This document shows positions 17,551 through 39,343 of a stretch of 64,000 bases of DNA, piece after piece. A program made the position numbers and the translations under genes. Numbering within the stretch: the first letter of the stretch is position 1; each line of letters opens with the position of its first letter. The stretch is from NCBI GenBank assembly GCA_973895155.1, contig OZ316891.1, positions 24,489,899-24,553,898 of the forward strand. The letters run 5' to 3'. The notes below the pieces were generated by a model, which saw nothing but the letters and a program-made list of their open reading frames with translations, did not search any database and was not told the DNA's origin. The DNA is from Marsupella aquatica. Lineage: Eukaryota; Plantae; Marchantiophyta.

Positions 17551-18172
17551 CCCACTCGGACGGATCTCACAAGCGCAACAAACATTAGGTGGCGCCAATA
17601 GTTTAGAGTAGTGTAGGTTTAGTCGTAGGGGTAGGACACTACCAACGAGCGTTGGAATTAGTTAGAATGGCACCAACCATCTTTTAGCGTAGTCTTTTAG
17701 GATAACAACAAGTCATTTTTGAAAACTGGCATTGAGCTAGGATTAGCATAGGTTACAAGCACGTGACCCCTCCTGGCCATGGCTCTTAGTTAGTATTTAG
17801 TGCACCCCCAGTAGAGGCAGCGGGGGGGATTTTAGGCTCAAATTCGGGTGTCCGCAGGATGTGTGTGGAGTCTCGGCCTTCTTGAATAGAAGTTCCAAGG
17901 ATTGAGGGTAAGACTAAGCTCGTTGGGCAAGTGCGGATCCGGGCTCCGTTGTAGTGTATGCCTCTTTGCCTTTGGCATGAGTATTCAAAAGAAGTCCAGT
18001 AAACCGTGGGTATGTGCATAACGGCTTATGAAGTAAAGTCTTTTCCCCACTATTTCCTTCGTGTAAATCAAGCGTGTATGTTGTGAATGCTGAGACAATT
18101 GTACATCTTGTATGCGGATAGAGAATGTTGGGCCGGGCGTGCTACACGAGCCGTGCACGGGGTGTAGGCTAC

Positions 18173-19500
18173 TGTGATGCCTAGCCAGGAATGACTAGGC
18201 CGTGTAAGAGGTAAAACCGGGGGTATACAATAAAACCACTAGTATAAGGGGGAGAAAAGCAAGAAAACCATAAAAAACTAAGGGTACACATGAAACCCGA
18301 GCCGAGGCTGGGAGTAAGAGGAGTAACAACCACTAAGGGTTGTGATTAGGGTTTGGCATGTTAATGTTGGCGGCTGCCGGTAATCAATAACCAAGACAAG
18401 CAGTGCAGGCCGGAAGGGGGGTAAGATAGGGTCACCCAGGAGTGACGGCTCACATTCTCAATCAAGCAGAGTGCAAGCAGAAGCCAACAACTATCAACTA
18501 CAAAGGAGAACACAGGGGCATAAGCAGCTACCGAGCAATGGCAGAGGAGAGAATGAGCAACATCAATCAAGCGGCACATTTATGGGGATGCCTATTTGAA
18601 CGGGCAAGTAAGTATGTTGGGACCTACAAGGAGGAAGAATAAAAAAGAGTAGCCCGCAAGCAACAAGAGCTTGCTCGGCTACGGGAACTGCAGAAGTTGG
18701 CCTTCTTAGGAGGAGAGTTCATCAAGGTTGAATTCCGGTGGACGCCTACTGCCAATGAATCGACGATCTTCTAATTCAAGACAACAAAATTGTCGGCATC
18801 CAGCAAGCCATCAACAACTACAATGACAAACATTGGGACCTGAAGGGTTGCATGGAGGCGTGGACGATAGAAACAATGTTGGGAGAATCATCAAGAGCGG
18901 CAAAAATGAAGAGGAAGATGGCCAACAATGAAGAAAACACACCAGCCAAGAGGACAAGGTCGGCAACATCAAGAAGGCCGGCCGAACAAGGGAGGCTAAG
19001 AGAGGAGGGAGCCGAGGAACCAGAAGTCGACCCAGTCAATGCCGTCCCTATCCGAGATGACACCTAGAAGGGCTGGGCGACAATAATACCATCGGCAATG
19101 CAGCTACATTTTGCACGAGAGGAGGATGCATGCTTTACAGCCATGCAGACCAAAAAGTACCAGGGCTTCATGGGCGGATTAGGCTTGGAGACCTTTGTTA
19201 TATTGTTGTGGCTAAAGCCGAAGGTGCCGAAGTCAAACTTACTGGAATTCGTGGGATCATGGGACCATGAGTCTAGCTCAACCAAGATCTATGGGAGGGA
19301 TTTCTATCTCACCTCCAACGTGATTGCCAAAGTATTTGGCTTGCCGATGGGCAACAAGGCTAAGGTAGAAACCCGGAAGAACTTGTCGGATAAGGAGTTT
19401 AGTTCATTCTCCTGGCCATCAACAAAGAATGGCTTCCTCCGAAACACCTGCATCAACCCGCATATTGGAGAGATGATCAATTTCCTGCGGGTGACAATGC
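18173..19500 (+). mobile_element. 5' part of the ORF-bearing LTR, truncated
   Basis: Starts TGTGATGCCTAGCCAGGAA. Encodes NQAAHLWGCLFERA and HFAREEDACFTAMQTKKYQGF. Cut at 19500 by a new LTR start. Confidence 0.85.
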
Positions 19501-19634
19501 TGTGATGCCTAGCCAGGAATCACTAGGCCGTGTAAGAGGTAAAACCAGGTGGTATACAATAAACCACTAGTATAAGGGGGAGAAAAACAAGGAAACCGTA
19601 AACAACTAAGAGAAAAACAAGGAAACCCTAAACT
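19501..19634 (+). mobile_element. Short 5' stub of the same LTR
   Basis: TGTGATGCCTAGCCAGGAATCACTAGGCCG..., near-identical to 18173-18280, then abuts the gag fragment. Confidence 0.8.
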
Positions 19635-19775
19635 TTCTCTCTCATCCTCTGTTCTACAATCTGCTTCATTCCTCCTTGGTTCACATTCATTGGTATTGGC
19701 TCTCCAGAATCAACAAATGCAATCTTCCCTTCCACAAACTTGACATGTCGAAGTCGCAATGCTTCTGTCAGTTCT
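19635..19775 (-). pseudogene. gag: Gypsy gag, 3' fragment (downstream of zinc knuckle)
   Basis: Joins in frame to the 40455 fragment across the CACTA: ...HRRDCG|ELTEALRLRHVKFVEGKIAFVDSGEPIPMNVNQGGMKQIVEQR. Confidence 0.75.
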
Positions 19776-20544
19776 CACTAGTACATTATGAGGCCAATTT
19801 CCCATATAAACACCTTCGGATCCCTTTGTAAAATTTTTCCAAGAAAAACATCTCATCCGACTCTAAATGTATCGCAAATTCCGATCCTCAACCCATCGGA
19901 TAACGACAATCGGAAGATAATCGGACTTTGCAATACTAAAATTAACGCACTTTGCATACTCGACAATAATGGAAAAACAGCCATCCGATGTTCATAAAAT
20001 TGGAAATGGAAGAGGGGAGGCGGCCCAAAAGCCGTGTGTTTCCGATACACTTCCGATACGTAGAGAATCGGAATTTGGGTAACTCTGAATATTGCATATT
20101 GCGTAGCAAAAGGTTACGCAAAGACCGTAAATAAGAGGATAAAAAATACCATCGTTAGAAATATCGGAAATACCATTAGTAGAAGTATTGGAAAGACCGT
20201 AACCGAGGGTATCGAAAAGATTGATTCTCTAGGGATGGCAAATTCCGAGTTTTAGAGAATCGGACATTTCGATAGTTTTAAGATCGGAGGAGTATTGGAT
20301 AATTGATGGGGTAAAATTTCTGATTATTAATTTTTGGGGTGTGGGGGTTACAATGTTGAGAGGCATGGAAGTGAGCATGGGTAGCAAGAATGGTAGTGAG
20401 ACTCAAAAGGGGGAAAACCCCTGCCATTATATATACAAAAGAGGATGGCTTCCTCTAGCATGGAAAGTACAACCTTTACATGTACAAGTGTATAATCCAT
20501 CTCAACCTGCATGGCATCGCGGCCTACCTACAAATGGTCCTATG

Positions 20545-23440
20545 CTAAGCTACCTGGCCTATCCATATGTTGGTGCATGTCGTCCCTTCCTCTTCTTGGC
20601 ATGAGGGCGATAACTCTCTGGTTGGGTAGTGGCATCTGGCACTAACCCTATCAATGACAGCATGAGATCCAGTTGCAGCTGTGGTGCTTGGAGCTATCGC
20701 GGTACCAACGTCACCAACATCACCTTCTAAGTCATGAGAAGGCACTGCAACACCCCCAGCATCGGAGCAAGTATGAAATGATGCACTTCCACTACCCCCT
20801 TGGGCTGCAGAGTGGTGAGACCCTGCACCTCCACTAGCCCCTGACTGATGAGATGGAGTCCCATCACCAATGCCACCAACTGCAGTCCCACTCACCCTGT
20901 TGGCCCCTGAATGACCACGAGCAGTGCTCCCACCCCCACTTGCCCCTCCACCACTAGCCCCTCCACCACTAGCCCCTGAACGGCGAGAACCATTCCCGCC
21001 AACAACCCCTGAATGGCGGCGAGAACCACCATGGGGCCCACTACCAACCCCCCCACCAGACCCGGGCCTGTGAGAACCACTATGGGCCCCAGTACTACCC
21101 CGCCCACCAGCACCTGCAGATCGATCAAAACCTCCCCGGCGCCCACTACCACCTGTCCCAACACCACCTCCAGCAGCTGTAGCATCCCCACTACCTCCTG
21201 CTGCTCTACGGCCACCTACATCACCACCAGTCCTCCGTCTGGAATGACTACCTTGAGTCCCTCGGGATGCGCCGCCAATCAAGCAAACAGGGGTGGGTGC
21301 CACACTCCCCTCCTCAACCTCAGCCTCAGACTCTGAATCTGAGGCCCCCGAACCCTCCTCGGCTGAGTCCAAACCCTCCGACTCCTCATTTGACTCCTAC
21401 ATACATGTAAGCAACCATCAACCCAAGTGTTAGTGTTGCAAATGACCTACAAGGGAGTGATTATAACCATGTTGCATTCAAAGGTTAGAAATATGGTTTT
21501 CAATTGTGCATATACTTACCGACCCCAACTCGCCCTGCATGTGAAGCTTCAGAGCCCGCGTTCCAAATTTCTTAGCCAACTCTCTCTCAGGCGGCAAGAT
21601 TGGGCGTCCATGCTCTCGCTCCTGCACCATACTCAACATAATAATTAACCCCCCTCCCCGGCAAATGAGAATAAAATTGAAACCCCCCATTACTTGAAAT
21701 ACATTATTTTAAAAGTTAATCCCTACCAAATCCCCCACATTACTTAATGAATAATAATCCCTACCTAGCCCCACACATTACTTAGAAAAATTCCCTAACA
21801 CCCCCACATCCCTTTCAACTCATGGGTATCACTACCCACTCTACCTATATAAAATACTCCCTTATTATTGTGGCCTAACTATCGCAAAAAGCAACAACAA
21901 CCTAAGCCCGACACTCCTAAAAAACAGCAAACCCCCTCGGCGTGGCCTAAAACAGTCAAATATTCAAAAATTTGAATTTTCCGATGCTTCCCTAATCGGA
22001 CCCCTCCACCCTAAACCCCAAAACCTAAGGTCCAATTCAGAGTCCGATTCTCAGGTAATCGGACCATAATCGGAAGCCTTGCGTCCAAAACCCATAAGAG
22101 AGAGTCCCACTCCATTTCCGACTCTTCAGCAATCGGAATAGAATCGGAAACAGAAAAAAAATAAGGACACATCAAAACTTGCAATACAGACTCGATAACA
22201 AACGCACAGGGATAAGAGGGGAGATCTGGGAGGACTTATGCAGGCATAGCCAAGGTTGTGCCTGAGGTGATCAGGGAGAGGGAGGACCCAATTTTGAGGT
22301 GCAAAGTCAGCAAGGAGGCGAGCAAGGAGGAGGTAAGCAGAGGACTCACAAACTCTGCTTTGAGACGATGCACTCCACCCTGCCCCATTCAGTGAGTAAC
22401 TGCAGGCCTCTTCTCCACCCTCTCAATTGCATTTTGAATGTAAAGTGGAGGGTCTCCAAGCAGTGCTAATTTGGCCTCCCATTCCATTAAGTTTTGCTGC
22501 AGGAGGGGGATGTCAACAGTCTGTCCTGAAAGGACCCTCTTCTCTGCCTCATCGAGCTCAGCCTGCCAGTGACGTCTTGCTTGCCAAGCACAAACCTGTA
22601 GCTCAGCATCAATCCAAGCAGACCAGGCATCAGCTGGTATCTCATCCGGGGGATCTCTCTGCCTGATCACCTCTGCCTCCTCCTTACAATCTGCCAGGTA
22701 CTTCCTCATCTTTTCTCTCACATTATTACGTCTATCTGCAAGTGAACGTGAGATCTTCTTATTCAGCCATCGATCATCCAGGAAGCAGCCATTACAGAAT
22801 CGCTCCTTCACTTGCTCCCTTGCTCGAAATTTCTCCTCTTCTTTTTTCTTCCCCCAGTAGTCTAAGGGGCTGAAATTTTCCCTCAACACCTGCCCTAGCT
22901 GACTTCTGAACAAATTGTAGCTCTTTGTCATCGGAGCTCCTCCCTTATTAATGAACAATTTTGGCCGTTTGGCCCTTTCCTCTGCTCGTAGCCTCTCTTC
23001 CTCAATCCTTGCCCTCTCTGCAGCTCGAGCCTCCTTTCTAAGCCTCTTCTCTCTTTCTTGTGGTGAGAGGGCCTCCACTGGCCTGCCTTTCCTCTCCTCC
23101 TTCCTCTTTCTTTTTTTCTCCTTTCCTTTCTCTAGCCTCTCCATGAAAGCCTTCGCTACTTCACTTATGGTAGATTGCCTGGATTCGTCAATGAGGCCCT
23201 GGGTCAATTGAGCTGCTATGGCTGCAGCTTCAGCAGACAGGCCTGCTTGCCTCTTGAAAATCTCTGCCATAATGTCCGAGATCTGCTGCGACGGTGTTGC
23301 TCCATCTCCACCCACCCTGGCTGCTTTGTCTCCTCCCCCCCCATCCGTGCCATTCCCCTCCATAGCCTCAACCTCCAATGCGTGCTCCTCCGCTTTGTGT
23401 TCACTTGGCAGCTCCTCCCAATTTGCATCCGAAACCAAGC
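20545..23440 (-). pseudogene. TnpA: TnpA-like (Transposase_24/Ptta-type) spliced gene with Gly/Ser-rich tail
   Basis: Phase-0 GT-AG exons ~23440-22350, 21621-21520 and 21396-20545. Motifs PPDEIPADAW..., VTH*MGQGGVHRLKAEF|EREHGRP match the Transposase_24 pattern. TGA at 22389-22391. Confidence 0.65.
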
Positions 23441-24755
23441 CTGATACAAAGACATTCGTACTTTAATCGGGAAAAGTACCAAACCCTATTGTGCCCTCCA
23501 TCCAACTTTTTAAGAATCGGAACATCCGATACTTCAACTATCAAAAACGGGATCAGAAATAGCGATGCTTAAAGTATCGGACCGCTCTTCCAATATGATC
23601 GGACTTAGCTTGTCCATTGTTTTTTATGCCTTTAAGGATGGATTTATAATAAGTTAGTCAATGGGGTAGGGGGGCTGGGGATGTGGTAAGGAAATATAAG
23701 TTTAGTTGATGTGAAAACTTGCATTGTAATTGTAGGCCTGGTTGAGTAGCCGAATTTTGTTTGGGCGGTGGGGTTCTTGAATAAAAGCCGGTTATAGGTG
23801 CGGTAACGTCCCCCTTACGACAACATACTTTTGGGGTTGAATGGTATGATCATTGATCCACTCACATTAAAAGTTTTGACAAATTTGTCCACCTTGTATG
23901 CTCGGGGGGGTCACTATATGGAGGGTCATACATCGCGTGCGACGTTTTAGGGTTTGACCCCCCTAACTTTAAAGTGAAAAATATTTTTTTGCAAAGCCCT
24001 TTCTTTCTTAAAATTTTGTCATTTTTTATTAAAAAACTCCTAAAAACTTTATAGAAAGTATTTTTTGCAATTAAATAGGCCTATGTGTTCTTTAAAGTCG
24101 ACCAATCAATAAAACATGCCCTATGTGTTCTTCCACCAAACTTTGGAAGTCTTCCGCCACACCCATTTAAATGGGCCTATACTTCGTCGCACGTGATGTG
24201 TCACTTCCGTGGAAGTGACCCCCCCGAGCTTGTATGTGGATTTAATTTTGGGGGCCAAACAAAGTTAACCTCATGTGCGTGTATTGTGCAGTATTTTTTT
24301 GCGGAGGGTTGGGTCGTTCTCTTTGTTTGTATTTTTGTAGGTCCATTTTTTCAATGCATTATGCATCGCGATAGGCCGTGCATCCGAAAGGTATGATGTA
24401 CTCCCTTTATCATTTGGAGGTGAGCACTTTAAGTATATATTTGGCTAAAAAAAATTCATTGATGGCCACAATATATAGTGGATATGATTCTATGGGGACA
24501 TATGTATAGATAAATTCTGATGGTATTTCTTTAATTGTGCAGACATTTCGGATTTTGTCTTAGCATATATTCTAAGGCCAAGATCCTAGTAGGCATTGTT
24601 CAGCGCGGATGTAATTTAGGTAAGATGCACAGTCATTATTTTTAATTATTTGCTTAGTGTAAACTAGGTTCCAATCTTGACATATTGTATTTAGGGTACT
24701 TAATATGGGTGGGAAAGATTTTTGACATGTGATTAATTTTCACATTGATGGGCAA

Positions 24756-24995
24756 ATGTCAAATTCTGGGAGTTCCGAGTCAGATTCTGACTCGGACTCA
24801 TCATCTTCTGAGGGGGACATTCCTCCCCCCCCCCCCCCTCCGAGGCCGCATCATCCTCCTCCTCCTCTAGGCCCCATTCCATGTTGGTGTGTGCGATGTA
24901 AGGGAATGGTGGTTCGTCAAGCTTGGGAGTGTATTGAGCATATTGAGAATTATGGGCAACACCAACCTAATTTACCAGGACATTCAGCTCGCCAG
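24756..24995 (+). CDS. Exon 1: transposase-associated Zn-binding domain (CxCxxC...H)
   Basis: ATG 24756; acidic/Pro-rich leader then IPCWCVRCKGMVVRQAWECIEHIENYG; exactly 80 codons to donor CAG|GTATG at 24995/24996. Confidence 0.75.
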
Positions 24996-25111
24996 GTATG
25001 CACCCCATACTCTCACCCCACACATTTTGAAGGAAACATAATTTGCCACTTACAATCATGGCCACTATCATCATATATTTATTAATTTTGGAATTTTTTT
25101 TGAATGAATAG

Positions 25112-26071
25112 GTGCCCCGTAGGCCCCCTCCTCCATTGATCTCTAAAGAGCTATGGCTAGACACATTCTTGGCTAGTGCAAGGCGGATGCTTGCATCAAC
25201 ATCTACACCCCCTTCTCCTGCCCCGCGCCCCAATGGTGAGGGCGGGAGTGTACCTGTAGCAAGGGTGGAGGACATTGAGCAAGGTGACCTGGAGGTACCT
25301 CCATCTAGGGTTTTACGCACCCGCCCACGCTCCCATAGGCATAGGAGACATTACAAACCATTGGGCACTCGTGAGTCTCAAGACCCAAACTTGGTAGGTC
25401 CGCCTATGATGATGCCAGGTGAGGGTTATGTGGTAGTGGAGGGTAGGTTGGGATTGTCATATCTCACTGGAAAGGCGTTGCCTCTTGTGAAGGACTTCTC
25501 GTCTGAGATATTCAAAATCCCTCAAGGCATACCCACTAATGCCCCTATAGAGATATGGGGCCGTCATTGGATAGTGCAGTCATCTTCCCTTGGTGTTGAT
25601 GTAGGATTTGGGTTATTTGCTTTGGAGGACATTGTGGTCCATCCAAAGCCATGGTGAAGAGGTTATGATGGGGAACACTTATTTCCTTACATTGGCCCTA
25701 TATACACTGCCAAGAATTGGAACATTATTTTGCGGCAACAACCATCATGGGGAGTGTATGCATTGCAAATGGATTCCGATCCGAATGAGATCCTCAAGAG
25801 GCCTTGGCATTGTAGGATGATTGATGGTGATCCTGTGCGATGTGATAACATCGTTGGGTATATCAATAGTACCAAAGGGAGAGGACGAGGACTTCAACCA
25901 AATGTAGAGTGGGTTCAGATTTTTGGGGCACCGCCACCACCTTACTATGTCAAGCATATGGATGACCATGTTATGACTATAGCCATTAGGACTATTAGGG
26001 CTGGTGAGGAACTCTTTTGTGACTATGATTGGAACGCGCCTAAGATGGCCATACGGTGTTGTCCTTCATAG
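25112..26071 (+). pseudogene. SET-domain (lysine methyltransferase-like) terminal exon
   Basis: Acceptor TAG|GTG. ORFs 25112-25657 and 25730-26071 are in one frame across a single TGA (25655-25657). Motifs SSLGVDVGFGLFALEDI, FPYIG, IDG..DNIVGYINS..PN and AIRTIRAGEELFCDYDW correspond to SET motifs I-IV. Confidence 0.88.
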
Positions 26072-26258
26072 CACATACAAACATGTGTATATGTTCACTT
26101 TTATAAAAATATTACTTGAGTCATTCTCTAATTGGTTTCAAGAGCTATGGAGTCTTTTGACTCATTCATATATGGATGTCTCAATTGTTGGTTGAGAGAC
26201 CTGGACTTATATCATTCTCATTGTTTTCTTTTGTGTATGATAGAATGCATTTGTTCAG

Positions 26259-29062
26259 CCAGATATTGAGGTATTATCACGAGCTGTGCGACAACATCTC
26301 CTTCAGGCCATGGATGGTAGGCAAGGGGGTCAACCTTTTGAGGATATGGACATTCCACATGAACTACCTAATGCTACCCAAGAAAGAGTGGATGAGGACC
26401 GGGCTATGGATGAGTTGATGCACCAATTCATGGATGCAGATGAGGGTGATCCCCGGGGTGATCATGACCCAGGTGACTAGGAGGACATTGACTTACCTCC
26501 TCCTCATAGGCATACTCCTTCACGGAATCCACACTCGCACCAGTGGGAGGAGGCTCAAGAGCATGCACGAACTCGTCTTTTTGAGGGGTCTAGATTATCT
26601 CGTCTTTCAGCAATCATGTTATTACTGAACTTGCAGCAAAGACATGGAGCAAGCAACTTGCTTCTTGATGATATTTTCAGGACATTGCATGATCGTATGT
26701 TACCAGAGGGGAACAACTTGCCAGCATCATGGAAAGAGGCGAAGAAAGTGTTGAAGTCCATAGGCCTCAAGTATGAGGTCATACATGTTTGTGTGAATGA
26801 TTGTGTTTTGTTTAGGAAGGAGCACTCAAATGCTCTTACATGTCCTGTGTGCAACGCGCCAAGATATCATGAGGATATGTTGACAGGAAGAGTACCTCAA
26901 AAGGTTATGAGGTACTTTCCCCTTATTCCTTGTTTGCGTCACCAGTTTCGATGCGCAGAGTTGGCTAAGTATATGGTATGGCATTCCCAACACAGTTCAG
27001 ACACTACTCAGGATCCAACCATGCGCATGATGGTTGACTCTCCTGCAAACAGATTTGTGGAAGAGTGTTGGGGTGAGTTCAAGACTGACCCTCGTCATGT
27101 TCACCTTGGTTTGGCATCAGACGGCATTAGCCCATTTGCACTGGCCGGCAAGGCCAAACCATACTCTGTATGGCCAGTAGTCCTCACTAACTACAACATC
27201 CCACCATGGATGGCCATGAAGAAGGGTCATTTGCTCCTATCTATGATTATTCTTGGCCCTAAGCAAGTGAAGAAGATTGATGTATACTTGCAACCGTTGA
27301 TTGAGGAGCTACAGAAACTTTGGGGGGGTGGATTGCTATGATGGTTGAGTGCATACAGGGGGCTTACCCCGTGAGTTTCAGCTCAAAGCCATTCTTATAT
27401 GGACCATGCATGATCTTCCAGGTACCCAACTCTTTATAAATTAAGTATGGCTTGTGCAGCTACCCATATATATATATCGTTCTGTTTATTTTGTTCCCTT
27501 TGGTTTGGTTTCAAAACTTAATGGGTTTTAATTTGTGACCATTGTTTGTGAAGGGTTTGGATATATTTCTGGCTTGCAAACTTCTGGATATCGTGCTTGC
27601 CCGACTTGTGGACCAGACTTGGAGGGAGTGGCCCGCCCAAAGTCTACCACCCTGCGGAAGATAGTTTACATTGGTCACACAAAGTATCTTCTTGAGGGGC
27701 ATGACTGGAGGTATGATCCATTTTTGTATGACACGGATGAGGGCCAGCCAGACACAAGACCTCAGCCTTTACCAAAGGACCCAATATATTGGAAGGAGGT
27801 ATGGGAGAGGGTGACTGATCCAAATGACCCGTTTGTCTGCATTGGCACAACTTCCATATTGGGAACACATGCCGATAAATCATCTATTGGACCCTATGCA
27901 TATTGAGGGGAATGTTGGGAGGTCATTGATCCGCCATCTATATGGAGAGAAAAACAACAATTGGAGGGAGAGTTGTGAGGAGATGGGGATGCATGGCCTT
28001 CATGGTTTTTGGCCATCTATGGACCCTGACCCTCCCCTTACTATCCATCCCCCATGGGTTTTCACAAGGAGTGAGCGAATAGAGTTTTGCAAGCGGATAG
28101 GGTCAATGCGGTTTCCTACAGGGTATGGTGCCAATCTTCGCAAGACATTTGGTGGAGATGACTCTCCAAAATGGCCAGCTTTCTTGAAGGCCCACGATTA
28201 TCATCGTCTATTGCAACACGTTATTCCAGTTGCTATTATTGGATTGGGCAGCGAGGATCTTCGGGATGCACTTTGGTCATTGGGTAGATTGTTGAGATGG
28301 GTTTGTCAAAAGGAGGTCAACGAGGGAGAGATTGCTGCCATGGAGGTATTTGGAGTGGAGGTTGTGTGCAAGTTGGAGCGAGCACTCCCTCCTTCCTTCT
28401 TTGATGGTCAAGTTCATTTTCTTGTACATCTAGTGCGTGAAGTAGCCATTGCAGGCCCAGTACATTGTCGTTGGATGTATTGGGTAGAGCGATTCATGGG
28501 AGTCATGAAATCATATGTATCAAACCGTGCTAGGGTGGAAGGTAGCATTGCCGAACGTCACCTTGGAGCAGAGAGTATGTTCTATTGTACAAACATTGTG
28601 GCTACACTTGATCCAAATGCTCCAAGGGGTTGGATAGATGAGTCAGCACGAGAGGCAGATTATGAGGAGGATAGACTCACTGGAGCAAAGGGAGAACGAT
28701 TACTAGGCTCTGCTGAACATCTGCAACTCACCACATTCATGTTGTATAACTCACCAGAGATTGCAGGGGAGTGGACTGCATTTTATGAGGAGGAGAAGAG
28801 TAATAGTCGTCGGCCACGCCTCTTCCCCAAGTTTCTCCCATATATGAAGGAGAAGTTGACAGAGATTGATGCCTTGTTGGGTCAGGGTGAGAGTGTTTTG
28901 CACTTTTCGAAGGTCACCAATGACATGCGCACCCTTGTTCATGGTCCATTACTCACGGTCACGACTCGAACAACCATGTGGTCAAAGGGGAGGCATTTTT
29001 GAATCCAACATCTTGATATGAAGAGAGCAGCAACACAAGATTGTGGGGTGATGGGGTGGTTC
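26259..29062 (+). pseudogene. TnpD: CACTA transposase TnpD (Transposase_21 + DUF4218 region), interrupted
   Basis: LPEGNNLP..IHVCVNDCVLF..CPVC, LGLASDG, YSVWPVVLTNYNIPPW, WTMHDLPG, LDPMHIEGNV, HFLVHL..GPVHCRWMYWVERFM. Intron ~27422-27553, frameshifts near 27325 and 27830, stops at 26478 and 29000. Confidence 0.92.
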
Positions 29063-30327
29063 GAGGTGTTTACAAAAGACAGCAAACAGGAAACAGGATT
29101 TAATAACAGAAACTAGTAACAGGAAAAAAAACTGGTAACAGGAAAATGGGTCCACCGGAAAAAAATTGGTCCACCGGCCCAAAGCTAGCCAAAAATCTTG
29201 CATTGTTAATTTTTTTTGGAAATAACATGTTTTAGGAGACATTTTTAAATTATTATTTTTCCTGGTAACAGTGATTTTTTCCTGGTAATAGGGGCCTGAC
29301 CTCCGTGACAGGAAACAGTAAACAGGAAAAATCATAACAGGAGTTTTTGCGCTCACGTTGTCATAATGGGATAAGTTTACTAGCGTCGGGCGCTAGCCAA
29401 AATACAATGGTACGTTTTCATATTAGTTGCAAGGGTTACAATTAGCAAATTACATCACATGTTAGGCAAACAAAATGTGCATGGTTTATTGGAAAATATG
29501 TAATTTATATTTTTTCAATGGATACTTAACATTTTGGCAAGGGTTATCATTAACACCCCCTCCCGACGCTAGCCAAAATACCATCATAGTTTTTACATAG
29601 TGACAAGATTTACAATTAATATACTGTTGTAATAGACAACTAAAGGAAAACACTCAAAGATACTCCAACAAGATAGATCCATTACTATTGATGAGGGGAT
29701 ATATATATCCCCTTGGTTACATGGTAGGCAAATGCCCTTATACTGGTCCTATGGTTAGGAGTTCTCATACTATGGTTAAGGGTTCTCGCCCTATGGTTAA
29801 GGGGTAAACTAGGGTTTACAACACTCCCCCTTGGTTAGTTTATGGAGGAGCATAAAGTAACCACATCTCTTGAACCTAGGGTATAATCCGGTTTAGGGGT
29901 CCACCTGTGTGATGTAGCCTCATTAAAACCTCGCCGCTTTCTTCTCGAGGAAAGAGTGCTACCATCACTTATATAGGTGGTTTCCCATATCTAATGTCCT
30001 GGTTAAGCCTTTTTGCCATGTCTTAGTTAGTGTTGATCGTATGTGCTAAGTGGGGTTATGTGAATGTTCCTAATGGGTGTCTAGTCTCCCCCTCAGCTCG
30101 TTGCCTGGTGTGCGTCTCGTGTTGTTCTTCATGTCGTTTTGCGTATTGCGCTTCGCTTCGTGTTGTGCTTTGGGTTAGTGAGGCCAAGTCGGGCGTTTTT
30201 GCGTTGGTTTGCGTTGTTTCACGTCGGGGATGTGGTGTGGCGCTCGCCGAGTGTGGTGGTCGGGCATCTGGAGGCGGCTTCATCGGGCGACAGTTTCGTC
30301 GTTGGGTAATCCTTTCGAGCTTCAGTG

Positions 30328-33300
30328 TTATGAGGTGGGCTTGATCGTGGACAATCTGCTCATGCCTATACCTTCGAGGTGCGCTCTGTGCAATCCGGCT
30401 GGTAGTGGTTTCGTAAACATGTCTGCTCGATTGTCCTGAGATTTGATCCATGCAACATTGATACTTTTCCCTTGTTGTTCTTGCGTGAAGAAATACTTGG
30501 GGTCAATATGCTTGGTCCTCTCGGTCTTCAGGATTCCGTTGGTTATCTGGTCGATACACGCCTTATTGTCTTTGTAGATTGTGGTTGGCTCTGTTATCTG
30601 TGGTTTACCGGTGCTGGACCTAATATGATTGATAATGCTTCGTAGCCATACAGCTTCTCTGCACGCCTCGTATAACGCTATGATTTCCGAGTGGTTGGAT
30701 GACGTTGTGGTCATCGTTTGCTTTGAACTTCGCCAAGATATTGCTGTCGTCCCCTGTAAGAACACGTACCCAGTCTGTGATTTGGAGTCCTGGGGGTCCG
30801 ACAGGTAGCCGGCATCAGTGTAACCGGTAAGCGTATCGGGGCTATTCTTAGGAAAGAATAGTCCAAGGTCGATCGTCCCTTGTAGGTATCTCATGATCCT
30901 CTTGATGCCGTTCCAATGCCTGATGGTGGGCTGTGCGCTGTGTCTCGCTAAGAGACTGACGGCGAACGATATGTCAGGTCTCGTCTGGTTCGCTAGATAC
31001 ATAAGGGCGCCCACCGCTGATAGGTACGGTTTTTCTGATCCCAGTATGGGTTCGTCTTCTTGGCGCTTCCGAAACATATCTTTGATCGGGTCTAGAGATC
31101 TGAGTTCCATCGGGGTGGAGACAGGGTAGGATTTCTGCATGTTGAATTGATGAAGTATCTTCTGCGTGTATGTCGATTGGTAAAGGAATATGCCTGTTTC
31201 TAAGTGTTCGATCTGCAGGCCTAGGCAGTGGTTGGGTCTTCCAAGGTCCTTCATCTCGAAGACTCCTTTCAGTGTATGTATTGTGTCTTTCATCATCTGT
31301 TTAGTCCCGAATAAGTTCACATCGTCCACGTACAGTGCTAGTATCAGGACTTCGTCCATATGCTTTTTGATGAAGCTGCAGGGTGCCAGTCCGCTATTTG
31401 TAAATCCGAGGGCGAGCATCTCTGTCTGGAATTTCTGATACCAGATTCTGCCGCTCTGTTTAAGTCCGTTGATGGAACGTAACACTTGGACTGTAAGTTT
31501 TGTTGTTAATTTCTTTCCTCTGGTATGCATTGCCTGTGTATTTCCACTTTGCATCAAGAGGGCCTTTGTATCCCCATCAGGTATTATTTGGCTGATGCCC
31601 TTTTTAATCTCTGTATTCAGGTTCTGGGACGTCTCCCCCTGAATGTGCTGCTTGACCCTCTCTATCAGTTCCGGGGGGGCAGTCATGTATATCTCAGTAT
31701 CGAGTGTGCCGTAAAGGTACGCGGTTACCACGTCCATAAGGTTATTAACCAGTTTATGGTGGACTGAATGTGCTGTGAGATAGCGATATGTAGTAGCGTC
31801 CATTACTGGTGAGTATGTTAAATCGTAGTCCCTGCCCGGGATTTGTGTGTAGCCTTTGGCTACTAGCCGGGCTCGATATCTTACTACTATGCCTTTCTCA
31901 TTTCGTTTTTTCAAGAATGTAAATCGAGAGTCGGTGTAATGTGTACCTGGTAATGCCATTTTAAATGGTCCGAATACTTGTCGCTTGATGAGGGCGTCCA
32001 TCTCGGTATGTATTGCTGCTTGCCACTTTGGCCAATCTGGTTGTTTCTTTGCCTCGTTTATAGTGAGCGGATCAGGAATATCGTTGGTGATTTCCTGTAT
32101 TACGTTATAGGCAAATTGTTCATCAATTTGGGTTGTCGGTCGTTTATATATGTTACCTGTTTGCATGTATGTGATTGACATTTCCTCGTTTTCTTCGCTC
32201 AATGGGTCGTTTTGATTTATCGCTGTCACGTTAAGTGTGATCGCTGGTTCCAGCGCGGGTGTACCCAAGTTTGCTGCTGGAGTTTTACGTTGGCGAGGCT
32301 GGGAGTCCTTGATCCCTGGTGGTCTGCCTCGCTTTGCTCTGGGGGCTGTTACATTGGCCGGTGTCGAGGAGGTTTGTACTCGCGATGGCGCATTAGCTGC
32401 TAAGTTGTGGGATCTTGTGACATTTGCAGCGTCGTTAAATGAGTCTGGAATCTTTTCGAGCATTTCATGTAGGTGGAGAAGTCTTCTGACTTCTTCGTCT
32501 GCCTGCTTGGTTCTGGGGTCATTTCTGTTTTGGTCTGCTTTCCAATTTATGGGCATTTTCGTTGTGTCCTTGGATTGTGTTGATGCTGTATTCGTGAGCT
32601 GTGGGAATTGATCTTCATAAAAATGGCAGTCCTGATGTCTTGCCTTGAACAGGTCTGCCGTAGTCGGTTCAAGGTATCTAATGATCGAAGTAGAGTCAAA
32701 CCCAACATAGATACCTGCATTCCGTTGGGGTCCGAGTTTTGTTCTCTTTGGTCCTAAGATAGGCACCATTACCTGGCATCCGAAAACGCGTAGGTGGGAC
32801 AGGTCCGGTGGTATGCCGAACGCCAGGTGGTATGGTGTCTTAGAGTTATATGCTGACGGTCTATATTGGATTAGTGCAGCTGCGTGAAGGATGGCATGTC
32901 CCCATGCTGATGTGGGTAAGTTTGACTTCATTAACAGTGGTCTTGCCACCATTTGAAGTCTCTTAATAACCGACTCAGCTATACCGTTCTGAAAATGAAC
33001 GTGGGGAACTGGATATTGAGTATCGATGCCCGCTGCCCAGCAAAAGTCGTCGAATGTTCTTGATGTGAACTCGCCAGCTCCATCTACTCTTAATCTTCTT
33101 GTAGGATACTCTGGGAACTGTGCTCTTAATTTAAGAATATGTGCTAAGATCCGCGCAAATGCCAAGTTGCGGGTAGATAGCAATGAAATCTGCAGCCATT
33201 TAGTTGATGAGTCGATGATTACCAGGAAATATTTGAAAGGGCCGCTCGGGGGGTCTATAGGTCCGCAGATATCTGCATTGATCTGCTCTAGGAACTGTGG

Positions 33301-33546
33301 TATTGAAAATATTGTTTTTGGTATTGATGGTCGTATGGTCATTTTTCCTTGTGAGCACGCTATGCAGGCTGTTTTTAACTTTGGCTTGACTGTCTTGGGG
33401 ATTCCTTTGGAGTCCCTTATAATCCTGTTGTACATAGTGGTACCCGGGTGGCCCAGTCGACAGTGCCAGATGTATGTCATATCCTCTGATTCTTGGTGTA
33501 TATGGAATGTTTGGATACTGGTTGCGTATAGGCCTGGGGGGATCAA
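30328..33546 (-). CDS. pol: Copia pol: integrase, reverse transcriptase, RNase H
   Basis: WHCRLGHP..CIAC, ADICGP..LRVDGAGEF..NGIAES, RLVAKGYTQ, YVDD, YTDAGY, RTKHI, ADMFTKPL. Confidence 0.95.
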   Translation of the reverse strand: MIPPGLYATSIQTFHIHQESEDMTYIWHCRLGHPGTTMYNRIIRDSKGIPKTVKPKLKTACIACSQGKMTIRPSIPKTIFSIPQFLEQINADICGPIDPPSGPFKYFLVIIDSSTKWLQISLLSTRNLAFARILAHILKLRAQFPEYPTRRLRVDGAGEFTSRTFDDFCWAAGIDTQYPVPHVHFQNGIAESVIKRLQMVARPLLMKSNLPTSAWGHAILHAAALIQYRPSAYNSKTPYHLAFGIPPDLSHLRVFGCQVMVPILGPKRTKLGPQRNAGIYVGFDSTSIIRYLEPTTADLFKARHQDCHFYEDQFPQLTNTASTQSKDTTKMPINWKADQNRNDPRTKQADEEVRRLLHLHEMLEKIPDSFNDAANVTRSHNLAANAPSRVQTSSTPANVTAPRAKRGRPPGIKDSQPRQRKTPAANLGTPALEPAITLNVTAINQNDPLSEENEEMSITYMQTGNIYKRPTTQIDEQFAYNVIQEITNDIPDPLTINEAKKQPDWPKWQAAIHTEMDALIKRQVFGPFKMALPGTHYTDSRFTFLKKRNEKGIVVRYRARLVAKGYTQIPGRDYDLTYSPVMDATTYRYLTAHSVHHKLVNNLMDVVTAYLYGTLDTEIYMTAPPELIERVKQHIQGETSQNLNTEIKKGISQIIPDGDTKALLMQSGNTQAMHTRGKKLTTKLTVQVLRSINGLKQSGRIWYQKFQTEMLALGFTNSGLAPCSFIKKHMDEVLILALYVDDVNLFGTKQMMKDTIHTLKGVFEMKDLGRPNHCLGLQIEHLETGIFLYQSTYTQKILHQFNMQKSYPVSTPMELRSLDPIKDMFRKRQEDEPILGSEKPYLSAVGALMYLANQTRPDISFAVSLLARHSAQPTIRHWNGIKRIMRYLQGTIDLGLFFPKNSPDTLTGYTDAGYLSDPQDSKSQTGYVFLQGTTAISWRSSKQTMTTTSSNHSEIIALYEACREAVWLRSIINHIRSSTGKPQITEPTTIYKDNKACIDQITNGILKTERTKHIDPKYFFTQEQQGKSINVAWIKSQDNRADMFTKPLPAGLHRAHLEGIGMSRLSTIKPTS

Positions 33547-34940
33547 TGCAAATGTTTCTTTAATGGATGGCTTACCTGTATGTCTTGTATGATCTGTAAT
33601 GTCTCTGTTTTGCCCTGAGTATTCGTGCGCAGTTGGAGGTTATTGGATCTGATATCCTGGAAGCTGATGAGGTTTCGGGTTGCTTTCGGGGCATAAATTG
33701 CTGACTTCACGGTGATTTTAGTTCCTCCTGGTAGTATAAATGTGGCTCGTCCTTTGCCTTCTTCTATATGATTAAGTCCTGCTATGGTGGTGATAGCGCG
33801 GGATGATGGGGTGATGGCCTCGAAATACTTGCTGTGTTTTAAGATAGTATGTGAGGTTCCGCTGTCGATGATGCCCGTATCGGGGTCGTCTAATGTCGGG
33901 TATTTCCAGTCAGTAAGAGAGGTATGTACTTCTATCTGTTCTTGTGTTTCTTCTCTCTGAGAGGCAATCAATTCTTCTTCTATCTCCATATAATGTCCTT
34001 GGGGGTTTTGTCTGGACTTATTTCTGTCGTTTATGTATCTGTGGGCCTCTTGTTCTGTGGCTGCACATGCGTTTCTAATGTGGCCAATTTTGCCACATCG
34101 GTAACACATTTTCTGGGAATTGTTTGCAGTGTCGTATTGGTTGCTTCGTCCTCTTCCTCTATTATTCATGGTGCCTCTGCGCCACGTGTTATTGGATCCG
34201 GAGGGTCGGTTATAAGGTTTGCCTTGTCCTCTGAATTGATTTCTCCCGCCCCTGAATTGGTTTCTTCCGCCTCTGAATTGAGTTCGTCCGCCCCGGTAAT
34301 TTCCTCGTTGTTTGTCTTCATAATTGGTGTAGTGGGTTTCAGGTCGATGTGGTGGGGGGTCTGATCCTGCTGGGCGCTTTCTGGCGTTTTGCAAGGCCAC
34401 GATCTGTTGCTTCTCTTCCACAAGTAAGTGAGCAATCAGATCTGAGTACTTAGTGAAACGCATGTTCCTATATTGTGTACCTAATGTGATATTAGATTCA
34501 GGGAATGTCGATAGTGTCTTATCGATTCTATCTATGTCATTTATTGGATGTCCACACATTTCTAATTGAGATGTAATTCTGCACAGTGCGCTATTGTAAT
34601 TGGCAATTGTGGTGTGGTCCATGACGCGCAGGTTATGCCAATCCCTTCTTGCCTCTGGGAGCCATATCTCCCTCATATGATCAAATCGGGCTTTGAGGAG
34701 ATCCCATAGTTTTCTTGGATTAATTTCGTTCATATACTCATTCTTTAGTTGAGGGGTTAGATGTTGCCTGAGTAGAAACGCTGCCTTAGCCTTTTGTTTG
34801 AGCGTGACATCGATGTCGGTATCTAAGGTGTCTTCAAGGTCTTGTGATGTAAAGTAAGTTTCGACATCTGTGATCCACGTCAAATAGTTGGATCCGTCGA
34901 CTTTAAGTGCTGGCCATAATAATTTTTCGACTGTATTCAT
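33543..34940 (-). CDS. gag: Copia gag-protease (out of frame with INT-RT-RH)
   Basis: LKVDGSNYLTW, CYRCGKIGHIRNAC zinc knuckle, IIDSGTSHTI protease. Likely ATG at 34940. Confidence 0.9.
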   Translation of the reverse strand: MNTVEKLLWPALKVDGSNYLTWITDVETYFTSQDLEDTLDTDIDVTLKQKAKAAFLLRQHLTPQLKNEYMNEINPRKLWDLLKARFDHMREIWLPEARRDWHNLRVMDHTTIANYNSALCRITSQLEMCGHPINDIDRIDKTLSTFPESNITLGTQYRNMRFTKYSDLIAHLLVEEKQQIVALQNARKRPAGSDPPPHRPETHYTNYEDKQRGNYRGGRTQFRGGRNQFRGGRNQFRGQGKPYNRPSGSNNTWRRGTMNNRGRGRSNQYDTANNSQKMCYRCGKIGHIRNACAATEQEAHRYINDRNKSRQNPQGHYMEIEEELIASQREETQEQIEVHTSLTDWKYPTLDDPDTGIIDSGTSHTILKHSKYFEAITPSSRAITTIAGLNHIEEGKGRATFILPGGTKITVKSAIYAPKATRNLISFQDIRSNNLQLRTNTQGKTETLQIIQDIQVSHPLKKHLH

Positions 34941-35286
34941 TATTCGGGATGTCAGTTGATTTAAGAACTTTGGTGAAGATTGAATCGAGTGAAGTATCTC
35001 GATTGTACAATTGACCGGTTGGAAGCTTGTATATGGAGCTGAGGGAGCTTTCAATCATGCCAATAAAGTATTAGTCCTTTGGACTCTCGATATGCTGGTC
35101 CCGAATTGATGCTCTATGTGAAAAATTTCGTGTTTTGTAAAAAAAATTCAACTCTGAGGCAAAAGAATGGAGACCAAGAAAAAAAACGGTTATGGCAGTT
35201 TCTAAAAAAAATGCCACTTTACGAGCATTCTCCTCGTGTAAAACTCGATTGCATCTGCTTGAAAAAAAATGATTTTAGAGACTGGC

Positions 35287-35300
35287 TCGTGCTGATAACG
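35287..35300 (-). promoter_or_regulatory. Primer-binding site complementary to the anticodon arm of tRNA-Ile (half-tRNA priming)
   Basis: Plus strand TCGTGCTGATAACG abuts the 5' LTR. Plant tRNA-Ile(AAU) as recalled has TCGTGCTAATAACG. Confidence 0.7.
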
Positions 35301-36546
35301 TGTTGTAATAGACAACTAAAGGAAACACTCAAAGATACTCCAACAAGATATATCCCCTTGGTTACATGGTAGGCAAATGCCCTTATACTGGTCCTATGGT
35401 TAGGAGTTCTCATACTATGGTTAAGGGTTCTCGCCCTATGGTTAAGGGGTAAACTAGGGTTTACAACATATACAACAAATTCATATGTTTGTTGAACGCT
35501 TACAAAAATGCAATATACTTCTCCTATAATCCAAGTGCGTATTTCTTGCATTTGGCCAAATCTGATCCTCTTTAAATTCTAAGGAGGAGACTTAAAGTGT
35601 ACATCATCATCAAGTTTATTGAAAGAGTGCTTACGTGAGGGGCACAGTCTTGGCCAAAAAAATATTCATTTGGAAGATTTTTTAATCTAATTTCTAATTA
35701 AATCAAACCTTCAATATAGGAAATCTCATGGATGTTTTCGTAATTTCTTGAACATAAATATCAATGTATGGATATAATTTCACATGGGTAATAAAAATTT
35801 ATGAACCCATGTGACGGATATACACACAAATGGGATCAAATTATAAAATCAAGTGTGATTTGAATCTTTATTTCGCAAGAAAATCTGGGACAATATTAAT
35901 TTGACTAGTGTTTAAATTGTCTTTTTCAAACCACAAACATCATTATATTTTTCAAGTTGTTGATTCTATATATGTGGGTTGTTGTTATTTTCATAAAATT
36001 TCTTAGAATTACTTCTAAATTATTTTCATAAGAAGGTGATGTGCTTAAGAAAATGAGAAAAGTTTTGGGCTACAATAGGATTAGAGTTTGACGCTCTCTA
36101 GTGACCCCAAAATATCTAGTATAGAACAAGGAAAATATGATAGTAATGCCATACTCTACTATACAAAATTGGCATAATTTGATGTGTTTAAAGGTCATGA
36201 AGATTAAACTCTTGGATTAAATCTAGGAATAAATCCCATAATAGCTCCAGATGCAAAAGAAATTGAGACAAATTGAATATATTTATATGATATAATCCAT
36301 AATTTAGTACCTAATTGCTATCTCAATAGTCCTAAAATCTTGTGCAGAATGTATAATAGCGCTAGGCGCTATCATAAATCATATTTATTTGACGTATTGA
36401 TTGATAAAAGTAATAGGTGTTGTCATCAAATGACACATTTATGTGTAGAAACATCCATCATTTTTTAAAGAAAATTTGGCAGAAGAGTTAATTACAAGAA
36501 ATAATAAACATAAACCCATACAACAAATTTAATAAAAAAGATACAA

Positions 36547-38195
36547 ATGTTACTAGCGTCGGGCGCTGGTAATATCCTACTTGGCTTGACCCCTCTAAGA
36601 ATGATATTATTTTAAGAATTTTTATACAAAAATTGAGCTAAAATTGGTATAAAACATTTAAAAATGTTACTAGCGCCGAGAGCTAGTAATATTCAACTCA
36701 CCAAGACACTCCAAAATGACACTATTTTGAGTGTCTTTATGAGTAAAAATTAAGCAAAAAAGGATATAAAAATGAATTAACATTACTAGCGCCGGGAGCT
36801 AGTAATGTCACACCCACCTAGACCCTCCAAAATGACACTATTTTGAGTGTCTTTATGAGTAAAAATTAAGCAAAAAAGGATATAAAAATGAATTAACATT
36901 ACTAGCGCCGGGAGCTAGTAATGTCACACCCACCTAGACCCTCCAAAATGAGAGTATTTTGAGCATGTTACATAAAACAACAGGCAAAAAGGTAATAAAA
37001 ATGAAGGAATATTGCTAGCGCCAGGAGCTAGTAATATCACACCAGTTGGATCCTCCAAAATGACATTATTTTTAGTGTCTTTATGAGAAAAAAATAAGCA
37101 AAAAAGGCTATAAAAATGAATTAACATTACTAGCGCCGGGAGCTAGTAATATCACACCAGTTTGGATCCTCCAAAATGACACTATTTTTAGTGTATTTAT
37201 GAGAAAAAATTAAGCAAAAAAGGTTATAAAAATGAATTAACATTACTAGCGCCGGGAGCTAGTAATATCACACCAGTTTGGATCCTCCAAAATGACACTA
37301 TTTTGAGTGTCTTTATGAGAAAAAATTAAGCAACAAAGGCTATAAAAATAAATTAACATTACTAGCGCCGGGAGCTAGTAATGTCACACTCGCTTAGACC
37401 CTTTAAAATAACATCATATTGAGTATATTTATGAGAAAAAATTTAGAAAATTGGGCTATAAAAATGAATTAACATTACTAGCGCCGGGAGCTAGTAATGT
37501 CACACTCGCTTAGACCCTTTAAAATAACATCATATTGAGTATATTTATGAGAAAAAATTTAGAAAATTGGGCTATAAAAATGAATTAACATTACTAGCGC
37601 CGGGAGCTAGTAATGTCACACTCGCTTAGACCCTTTAAAATAACATCATATAATTGAGTATATTTATGACAATTTTTTTAGAAAATTGGGCTATAAAAAT
37701 GAATTAACATTACTAGCGCCGGGAGCTAGTAATGTCACACTCGCTTAGACCCTTTAAAATAACATCATATTGAGTATATTTGTGAGAAAAAATTTAGAAA
37801 ATTGGGCTATAAAAATGAATTAACATTACTAGCGCCGGGAGCTAGTAATGTCACACTCGCTTAGACCCTTTAAAATAACATCATATTGAGTATATTTATG
37901 AGAATTTTTTAAGAAAATTGGGCTATAAAAATGAATTAACATTACTAGCGCCGGGAACTAGTAATGTCACACTCGCTTAGACCCTTTAAAATAACATCAT
38001 ATTGAGTATATTTATGAGAACAAATTTAGAAAATTGGGCTATAAAAATAAATTAACATTACTAGCACCGGGAGCTAGTAATGTCACACTTGCTTGGACCC
38101 TCCATAATAGAACCATTTTGAGAAATTTTCAAGAGAAATTTTCCGCAAAAAATGTAGAAAACAAAGGAACATTACTAGCGCCAAAAGCTAGTAAT
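36547..38195. repeat. Tandem array of ~15 units of ~116 bp, each with a hairpin
   Basis: Core CATTACTAGC-GCCGGGA-GCTAGTAATG (10-bp stem, 7-nt loop) recurs every ~116 bp. The AT-rich intervening parts are homologous to each other. Confidence 0.95.
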
Positions 38196-39343
38196 GTGAC
38201 TTTGGCCCAAACCCTCTAGAAAAACATTTTTTTGAGTCTGTGACCTTTAATTATTTACTGATATACCACTTATTTCACTAGTAGTATTACCGTTTTATCT
38301 CTTGTGTTTGCTATTGTTGTTAAATACACCAAAGGATATTTTAGAAGGTCATGCAATTTTGCAAGTAATAAAGAAATATCTATGTAAATGAGACCTCACC
38401 AAAGAGGACTTTTTGTTGGCATTGAGTGCTACTATGGTAATATGAACAAAAATTACTATAGCCTAAAGGATATATTTTGATAAGCGACAGGCGCTGCTAT
38501 AAATTTTGGTCAAAAGCAATGGCTCTAATTATCAAATTTATTATAGTAGTTTGTGGTGCTACTATATTATATCATCATTTGTAATGTTTTAATGGCTATA
38601 TTATCACTAATATTATCCAATGTCACGGCTGCTGACCTTGTTACTAGCAAAAAAGAACATAGCATCCTCTAATGGTCTAAGGCGGTTCAATCAAAATTTA
38701 CAATATGTCAAACTCTTCATCATTGGTTAGAGCATTCAATGACCAGAGTGTACTGCATTTGATAGCAAGAGTATATCTTTTTGCTCACATCACTCTACGT
38801 GAGGATGTTAACCTTTGATCAATCAACACATTTACAATCTTCTAGGTAGTACTTTGGAAGATGCATGGAACCCTTGATATGATGTGCTCTTTTATCGATA
38901 GTTTGTCACTACTAGACGTCCAAATCAAAGTACGATTCAATATAATTCAAGTTAGTTTGAGCATGATAATTAGGGTGTCTAAAGGGGAATAAACTTTTAT
39001 GTTATAATCTTTATATAGTTTTGACGTCGTGCACGATAGTTTTGAGCCTTCATGTGTAAAAAATCTTTGGCGCTAGTAAAGATTTATGTCTATAATAATT
39101 GTATCTGTTACATATATTACAGCTGCTCAGTTCAAATTGTAGTGTAATTTTGGTCCCTAAAGTGGGAATTTTCTTTCGGCATTGCGCACAAAACTCCTGT
39201 TATCTTTGACCATTTTTACTGTTATGATAATTCCTGTTTACTGTTTCCTGTCACGGGGAAAAACCTCGGTAATAGCATATTAAAAACAGGAAAAAAATTC
39301 CTGTTTACCTGTTTCCTGTCTCCGTCGCTATACCCGGTGGTTC

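Follow-up and report, generated by a model that had tools for sequence, protein, structure and literature searches.

A 64,000-nt stretch of the genome of the liverwort Marsupella aquatica (contig OZ316891.1, positions 24,489,899 to 24,553,898; hereafter the window, meaning this whole stretch) contains a CACTA transposon at window positions 19776–40454, and an exon encoding a SET domain lies within its transposase gene, tnpD. The terminal inverted repeat (TIR) CACTAGTACATT is identical in 12 of 12 bases at the two ends, 19776 and 40454, and is the longest perfect inverted match among the CACT(A/G)..(T/C)AGTG pairs listed for the window; both ends are bounded by TCT, a target-site duplication (TSD) of 3 bp. 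These ends, subterminal repeats in both orientations and the TnpD profiles PF02992, PF13960 and PF13952, all of which exceed their cut-offs although the gene is disrupted, identify a CACTA (En/Spm) element. As an initial annotation, made from the letters of the window, had stated, the TIRs and the TSD enclose the SET exon, which has no termini of its own. The coordinates are collected in Table 1.

Table 1. Features of the CACTA element in window coordinates (a slash within a motif marks the splice point)
Feature	Position	Strand	Basis or remark
Left TSD TCT and left TIR CACTAGTACATT	19773-19775 and 19776-19787	+	Inverted-repeat pair scan, sequence reading
Left subterminal cluster of ATCGGA/TCCGAT hexamers, both orientations	19880-20288	.	
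Additional ATCGGA/TCCGAT hexamer clusters	near 21980-22150 and 23516-23600		
Second gene, open reading frame (ORF) of 356 codons, head-to-head with tnpD	22389-23462	-	TnpA-like by position only
Exon 1: start rich in Ser/Asp and in Pro, followed by C-x-C-x2-C-x13-H-x4-G (putative Zn finger)	24756-24995	+	
Predicted intron, 116 nt, to SET acceptor TAG/GTG	24996-25111	+	
SET exon, 319 codons and stop	25112-26071	+	Reading frame and PF00856
Premature TGA in the SET frame	25655-25657	+	Arg in other subfamilies and homologs
U-rich tract and two open phase-0 tnpD acceptors	26222-26258	+	TAG/AAT 26243/26244, CAG/CCA 26258/26259
tnpD body: acidic linker, Transposase_21 (PF02992), DUF4218 (PF13960)	26244-29062	+	Pfam profiles
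Nested insertion splitting tnpD, GGTGGTTC on both flanks	29063-39335	.	8-bp duplication read by eye
tnpD 3' end with DUF4216 (PF13952, E 3.9e-7), beyond the nested insertion	39341-39723	+	
Right subterminal ATCGGA/TCCGAT cluster; right TIR 40443-40454, TCT 40455-40457	39987-40457	.	

Exon 1 runs from the ATG at 24756 over 80 codons and ends in phase 0 at the donor CAG/GTATGC, with the GT at 24996, exactly where it had been annotated. The acceptor TAG/GTG at 25111/25112 opens a frame of 319 codons closed by the stop at 26069–26071, and the two exons join in frame to a product of 80 + 319 = 399 aa, matching the finger–SET protein of about 400 aa that had been proposed. From the N to the C terminus, the SET exon encodes a conserved helix, an Arg-rich stretch (approximately 25307–25351), a family-specific beta region and the SET domain itself, which PF00856 matches at approximately 25604–26026. 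With the TGA read through, the profile reaches 31.4 bits at E 2.7e-7, above its cut-off of 22.4 bits; the piece 3' of the TGA alone scores 31 bits (E 3.7e-7), so that the match is independent of the read-through residue. Opposite the TGA, an Arg is found in 3 related proteins (P0001, P0006, and P0007) and in several contigs of diverged subfamilies. The TGA had already been noted in this copy, and it is the sole stop inside the SET frame, but tnpD is damaged as well, by stop codons at 26478 (TAG) and 29000 (TGA), by changes of frame near 27320 and 27820, and by an insertion of 10 kb at 29063. The window copy is dead in both products.

At the start of the tnpD body, the site originally taken as the acceptor, TTCAG/CCA at 26258/26259, is open and in the tnpD frame, in phase 0. 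However, TAG/AAT at 26243/26244, also in phase 0, directly follows the U-rich tract and recurs as the same TAG/AAT in related loci, and it appears at least as likely to be the acceptor. An N-terminal Cys/His finger is the usual architecture of CACTA TnpD proteins, and exon 1 had been assigned to the Zn-binding transposase-associated domain (PF13963). The Cys/His spacing and the N-terminal position agree with this, but the profile does not: window exon 1 gives no match even at E 10, and only 2 of 14 finger-bearing or exon-1-like sequences match weakly (L003, E 0.011; P0078, E 0.031), below the curated cut-off of 27.7 bits. The domain label thus rests on motif and position and, as motif spacing and position agree, exon 1 is likely to be a diverged relative of PF13963.

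Searches with the SET exon returned 9 close proteins and 91 representatives (50% clustering) at E ≤ 1e-3. Sources were looked up for 29 proteins, to which further names shown in a match listing were added; the named organisms are Calypogeia fissa and Riccia sorocarpa, with the fern Adiantum nelumboides representing a distant subfamily. The C. fissa protein CAM6082608.1 (P0001) is 59% identical to its window counterpart, has an intact SET domain (PF00856, 34.1 bits) and groups with the window and P0002 in the tree with support of 100/100; together with KAL3682317.1, it represents the intact natural versions found in liverwort genomes. A metagenome scan yielded 25 loci, 23 of which belong to the family, the other 2 encoding SET proteins of chlamydial type. 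In 11 of the 23, tnpD follows on the same strand; in 10, the finger exon precedes, and in 6, a homolog of the minus-strand ORF lies farther upstream. All but one of the 12 loci lacking a tnpD match end within approximately 460 nt past the SET or inside it, and in 3 of these 11 (L006 to L008) the start of the tnpD exon is visible. Identity between these loci and the window is approximately 35–49% in SET and approximately 50% in TnpD, and the three-part layout is therefore old. Contigs of six public sequencing runs (X1 to X5 and X10, under three organism labels) contain further diverged subfamilies over the SET core, and a search of the ESM Atlas with this core returned SET clusters, the 2 structurally closest of which come from Streptophyta. 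The SET is present and intact in other members of the family, which counters one of the refuting conditions named in the initial annotation, and it occupies the same position and phase in elements that are 30–60% alike in protein and come from two liverwort classes and the metagenome loci. No canonical multi-domain plant SET protein was found among the 91 and 37 matches, which speaks against a recent capture of a host gene.

Comparison of L001 with 11 in-frame family copies gave a nonsynonymous rate (dN) of 0.13–0.16 and a synonymous rate (dS) of 0.41–0.57 over approximately 195 codons of SET, with dN/dS of 0.26–0.32; the finger exon gave 0.27–0.32 on 39 codons. When the subfamilies were laid on the window SET core, 20 of the best-supported 40 of 109 differences were synonymous and 21 of these 40 fell at third positions, for a synonymous site share of 0.22 and an expectation that transition bias lifts somewhat; among the same 40, position 25655 shows only the T>A form of the other subfamilies. 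No ratio was taken from the window itself, for which dS reaches 2.3 against L001 and is saturated against the tnpD of six loci. These values, with dN/dS of approximately 0.3, indicate that the SET exon is under purifying selection between lineages and rule against neutral evolution at that level. Judged from its sequence relatives, the SET exon is a conserved cargo of a bryophyte CACTA lineage, carried within the transposase gene and under selection.

Independent gene models point to the junction between exon 1 and the SET exon. CAM6082608.1 passes from its exon-1 homolog into its SET-exon homolog at Q/V, the junction predicted for the window, P0071 has the same junction, and in the intron-blind gene calls of exon 1 (P0108 and P0109) similarity ends exactly at Q/V. 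Finger and SET also occur in one protein in the Riccia sorocarpa models P0029 and P0041 and in a Logan ORF (P0027). Across the metagenome loci, the exon-1 donor is in phase 0 in 10/10 and the SET frame opens right after TAATAG in 11/18; of the remaining seven frames, four contain a premature stop that lies nearer, two begin at the edge of the contig and one is preceded by other sequence. At the tnpD acceptor site, phase 0 holds in 9/11 loci (one with the AG mutated), and two are frameshifted further on. The splice phases are thus conserved in family copies. Furthermore, the first Met of the window frames is codon 26 in the SET exon and codon 18 in the tnpD exon, in both cases behind conserved coding sequence: for the part ahead of the Met, none of 200 shuffles reached the observed score in 5 of 15 protein comparisons for the SET exon and 4 of 9 for the tnpD exon, the comparisons against metagenome loci being weak. 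Translation of either exon thus appears to require a start farther upstream, for which exon 1 was the sole candidate seen. The DNA holds one hallmark of an En/Spm-type arrangement, a shared 5' exon with a conserved in-phase donor and two acceptors. Contigs of the six runs cover the introns without a joint at 24995, but these runs behave as DNA contigs, in which splicing cannot be seen; the search of sequencing runs listed no RNA data set with the sequence. Collectively, shared-exon splicing is well supported by DNA and gene models: the junction of exon 1 with the SET exon is very probably used, and that with tnpD probably so.

The AlphaFold2 model of P0001, built with 52 alignment rows chosen by likeness to the query, has a predicted local distance difference test score mostly above 90 over residues approximately 130–335 and a low-confidence N terminus with one helix. 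It adopts a SET fold (Foldseek E 1.4e-7 to SET8), with Set1, EZH2, SET8, SET7/9 and MLL1 tied within 1 Z (Z 11.1–10.2; best row Z 11.1, root mean square deviation 2.8, 126 aligned). The best sequence match among solved structures is Legionella LegAS4, a bacterial SET protein solved with an H3 peptide (E 2e-4). SET domains are marked by the motifs GxG, YxG, NH and ELxxxY with a final Tyr, and all of these are kept here except the His usual in NH: G195 is conserved in 48/48 rows, Y226 in 47/47, Y244 in 47/49, N274 and N280 in 45/49 each, N292 in 49/49, E328 in 47/47 and the final Y333 in 46/47. Two positions ahead of the final Tyr, a small residue (C, A, V, or I) occurs in 41/47; we take this position to be the Phe/Tyr switch (SET8 Y334), where a small residue would presumably leave room for di- or trimethylation. 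The SET isoform is fairly likely to be an active S-adenosylmethionine-dependent lysine methyltransferase with room for more than one methyl group. Fold and core motifs are shared with SET8, SET7/9 and LegAS4/RomA, whereas identity to these proteins is only 19–28% and the family has an extension and insertions of its own. Ahead of the domain, 33 of the 56 proteins long enough have at least 6 R/K in 15 residues; this stretch is placed like the arginine anchor of SET8, which binds the nucleosome acidic patch (PMC7893823), or it may simply be a nuclear signal.

We therefore favor, with a probability of roughly 60%, a CACTA element that carries a conserved SET exon between its finger exon and the tnpD body, produces two proteins by alternative splicing and is aided by the SET protein. 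One promoter, head-to-head with the second gene, would give a single pre-mRNA; splicing to the near acceptor, with termination after SET, would yield the finger–SET protein of approximately 400 aa, and skipping to the far acceptor would yield finger–TnpD. The Arg-rich stretch and the shared finger might bring the SET isoform to chromatin or to the transposase complex, where it would methylate a lysine, possibly of a histone on the element's own chromatin, and such a mark might help the element to stay transcribed or accessible against host silencing. That the SET isoform acts on histones of its own element to this end is a tentative proposal, even if this target ranks first in our analysis, followed by a target other than histones, then by a mark that is repressive or serves targeting, by a catalytically dead reader and by a fusion. 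The most complete version, in which an ancient bryophyte CACTA lineage encodes a histone methyltransferase splice isoform targeted to the element by the finger, with the mark countering silencing and the splice choice serving as a switch between "write chromatin" and "jump", is doubtful as a whole; if true, it would be the first case in land plants of a transposon shown to place histone marks on itself, and its SET subfamily would resemble no host SET.

Several observations weigh against the favored interpretation. A weak search with 42 residues, which gave two candidates, found no gene model that joins exon 1 straight to tnpD, and in nine models (P0045, P0059, P0064, P0071, P0088, P0090, P0094, P0097, and P0102) some or all of the SET exon instead runs on into tnpD sequence. 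In one locus, L016, a cut SET exon is followed by 10 kb without tnpD. The 23 metagenome loci represent one close family plus L001 and L021 rather than 23 independent cases, and the phase counts are therefore drawn from few independent lineages. In the close family, SET has a dN/dS of 0.69 and tnpD one of 0.59, which fits copies that decay once inserted; a lenient alignment of L001 with L003 gives 73% likeness in intron 1, compared with 81% in the SET core, so that the intron cannot serve as a clean neutral control. Ser replaces the NH-motif His in 48/49 rows, and a post-SET region is lacking. Fold matches to activating and to repressive enzymes lie within 1 Z of one another, and the fold therefore names no substrate or subfamily. 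Finally, the PF13963 profile does not recognize exon 1.

The alternative that survives best, if still unlikely, is that an active SET isoform methylates a non-histone protein, such as TnpD, the product of the divergent gene or a host silencing protein, and thereby tunes transposition. The SET is minimal, with neither pre- nor post-SET parts, the protein has its family-specific extension and insertions, SET7/9 is among the tied fold matches, and the shared finger could dock the isoform on the transposase complex; a histone substrate is favored instead by the anchor-like position of the Arg-rich stretch, with the caveat about nuclear signals given above, and by the H3 peptide bound in LegAS4, the best solved match. 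Somewhat less probable is a repressive mark, or one that steers insertion, by which the element would damp itself or label target sites and limit harm to a host with a dominant haploid phase. EZH2, G9a, SUVH6 and SET8 all appear among the fold matches, and Marchantia transposable elements carry H3K27me3 and H3K9 methylation (PMC8616336), but the fold cannot tell activating from repressive enzymes, and the described transposon-encoded chromatin factors favor their element (VANC21; PMC8616336, PMC12730594).

The exchange of the NH-motif His for Ser and the missing post-SET region would fit a catalytically dead SET that serves as a reader of histone tails or as a decoy. We consider this more improbable again: the Gly motif, both Asn, the Glu and the final Tyr are nearly invariant, and LegAS4, which is active, likewise has no His in the aligned NH motif. 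The chained gene models, one of which (P0059 of Riccia) keeps a whole SET together with Transposase_21, would agree with a single fused product of finger, whole or cut SET and TnpD, comparable to SETMAR, of which the short form is a by-product. This seems quite improbable, given that no phase-0 GT follows the final Tyr in any of five sequences (the window, L001, L003, L004, and L007), that each SET frame hits a stop within a few codons past this Tyr, and that the points at which the chained models leave the SET exon differ and mostly precede the final Tyr, a pattern that gene predictors produce on decayed copies. Lastly, stops in the window copy and in many related copies, together with the commonness of Pack-CACTA capture (PMC8616336), might suggest passive cargo, a captured piece of a host gene or a nested insertion without function for the element, but this very improbable reading is largely refuted by the shared position and phase in diverged elements, the dN/dS of approximately 0.3, the conserved splice phases, the absence of canonical plant SET proteins from the matches and the lack of termini of its own.

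SET and transposase coexist in one gene in SETMAR/Metnase, a domesticated host fusion, and the SET structure of SETMAR is found among the fold matches to the P0001 model (row 33). The window SET, by contrast, is one that a mobile element carries with it, and a fusion of the whole SET to the transposase lacks the support of an in-frame donor past the final Tyr (none in any of 5 sequences). The closest precedent for the splicing is provided by maize En/Spm and Arabidopsis EN/SPM3 and EN/SPM7, which produce TnpA and TnpD by alternative splicing, Arabidopsis EN/SPM families switching between splicing and split genes (PMC13547354; for CACTA anatomy, see PMC4158355, and for transposases as regulators, 10.64898/2026.08.24.746577). 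The window element resembles En/Spm in its CACTA ends, 3-bp duplication, subterminal repeats and TnpD domains and, as its layout suggests, in a single transcription unit for the transposase and an accessory protein, but differs in that the splice partner of TnpD would be a SET protein, nested between exon 1 and the transposase body, and in that its other accessory gene lies head-to-head on the opposite strand.

SET genes have been reported from several other transposons. PAG2 of the red-algal Plavaka elements (EnSpm superfamily) is a fusion of an N6-adenine methylase with SET within a three-gene cassette, for which action on chromatin is a proposal (10.1101/2025.02.11.637652); as in the window, SET has thus been carried long-term by an EnSpm-superfamily transposon. 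Compared with PAG2 as described, the window SET differs in sharing exon 1 of the transposase, in its classical land-plant CACTA context and in lacking a DNA methylase, the methylase profile PF01555 matching neither the SET exon nor any of 99 relatives scanned. Further SET genes are found in HarbingerS and MuDR families of Phytophthora (PMC12730594, 10.1101/2025.02.11.637652) and, as cited in the same two papers, in Helitrons. These too are DNA transposons encoding putative histone lysine methyltransferases, but they belong to other superfamilies and hosts, and their SETs are accessory genes for which the available portions of these papers mention no shared exon. The window SET lies inside the tnpD gene, unlike the separate accessory genes of PAG2 and HarbingerS. 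VANC21 of VANDAL21 is a sequence-specific anti-silencing factor that causes DNA hypomethylation (PMC8616336, PMC12730594); the analogy, an element-encoded protein that alters the chromatin of its own family, is only proposed for the SET element, and VANC21 is not a SET enzyme.

A literature search that did not extend to Repbase Reports, subscription journals and preprint supplements found no bryophyte CACTA element with SET and no SET exon that has an exon in common with a transposase; further SET-bearing elements may be listed in Supplemental Table 6 of 10.1101/2025.02.11.637652, outside this search. The initial remark that the arrangement had not been described hence stands for the shared-exon layout but not for SET genes in transposons, which are already published, including from one EnSpm lineage. 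SET-carrying transposons and En/Spm alternative splicing being known, the new part appears to be their combination in bryophytes. For the oomycete and red-algal SET genes, no functional test is reported in the portions available of PMC12730594 and 10.1101/2025.02.11.637652, and, according to the latter, VANDAL is the sole transposon known both to bind its own sequence and to modify it. The intact liverwort versions are close to Marchantia and would make a transposon that writes its own histone mark directly testable. The shared first exon, if true, would couple writer and transposase under one promoter and offer a functional test for the little-understood N-terminal finger of CACTA transposases. 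The family also carries a warning for bryophyte annotations, in which many entries named "SET domain-containing protein" are cargo of transposons. Marchantia is a genetic model.

A bacterial origin of the SET was prompted by LegAS4 as top sequence match and by the chlamydial-type loci L024 and L025 among the 25, but is not supported, these two loci sitting on a branch of 3.5 changes per column in a 50-row tree without host SETs. L024 and L025 are bacterial SET genes caught by the pattern GYGLFALEDI and lie far from the family in the tree. Some SET proteins occur in other contexts. In Adiantum nelumboides, multicopy proteins (P0124 to P0126, P0128, and P0130) end in a distant member of the SET subfamily and lack the finger; some contain the motif IISGQH, which we take to recall ParB-like domains, and they may represent another mobile element carrying this subfamily. 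In Calypogeia fissa, divergent members (P0073, P0106, P0092, and P0145), in two copies each, have other N termini with Cys/His repeats and weak DUF5763 matches and are possibly other elements or domesticated genes.

The C-terminal half of the minus-strand ORF of the second gene is approximately 30% identical to proteins encoded at the same place in 6 related loci (L003, L006, L007, L008, L022, and L023). The ORF has no Pfam match and no usable ESM Atlas match, suggesting that it is possibly a new kind of CACTA accessory protein. The minus-strand stretch 20545–21396 possibly belongs to the same gene.

The insertion that splits tnpD contains a 116-bp tandem array and a Copia element. It has subterminal inverted arms at 29303–29340 and 39219–39256, no coding capacity of its own was seen in it, and the length of its duplication points to a hAT- or Mutator-like element. 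The array comprises approximately 15 units at 36532–38244, with a palindrome in each. The Copia retrotransposon, at about 29626–35468 on the minus strand, looks recent, as 121 nt of its long terminal repeats are identical and both frames, gag with 503 aa and pol with 1103 aa, are open.

Outside the CACTA element, three long plus-strand frames at 42133–44757 (426, 238, and 206 aa) have Cys-rich and DDE-like motifs and no Pfam match at E 0.1; they are probably another DNA transposase. Repeat families of 70–90% identity in both orientations (5930–7259, 18172–19610, and 61679–62792; 2570–3529 and 54978–56479) are probably old retroelement copies. Tandem arrays are located at 46196–46559 (period approximately 23 bases), 48838–49224 (approximately 21) and 54467–54881 (approximately 14).

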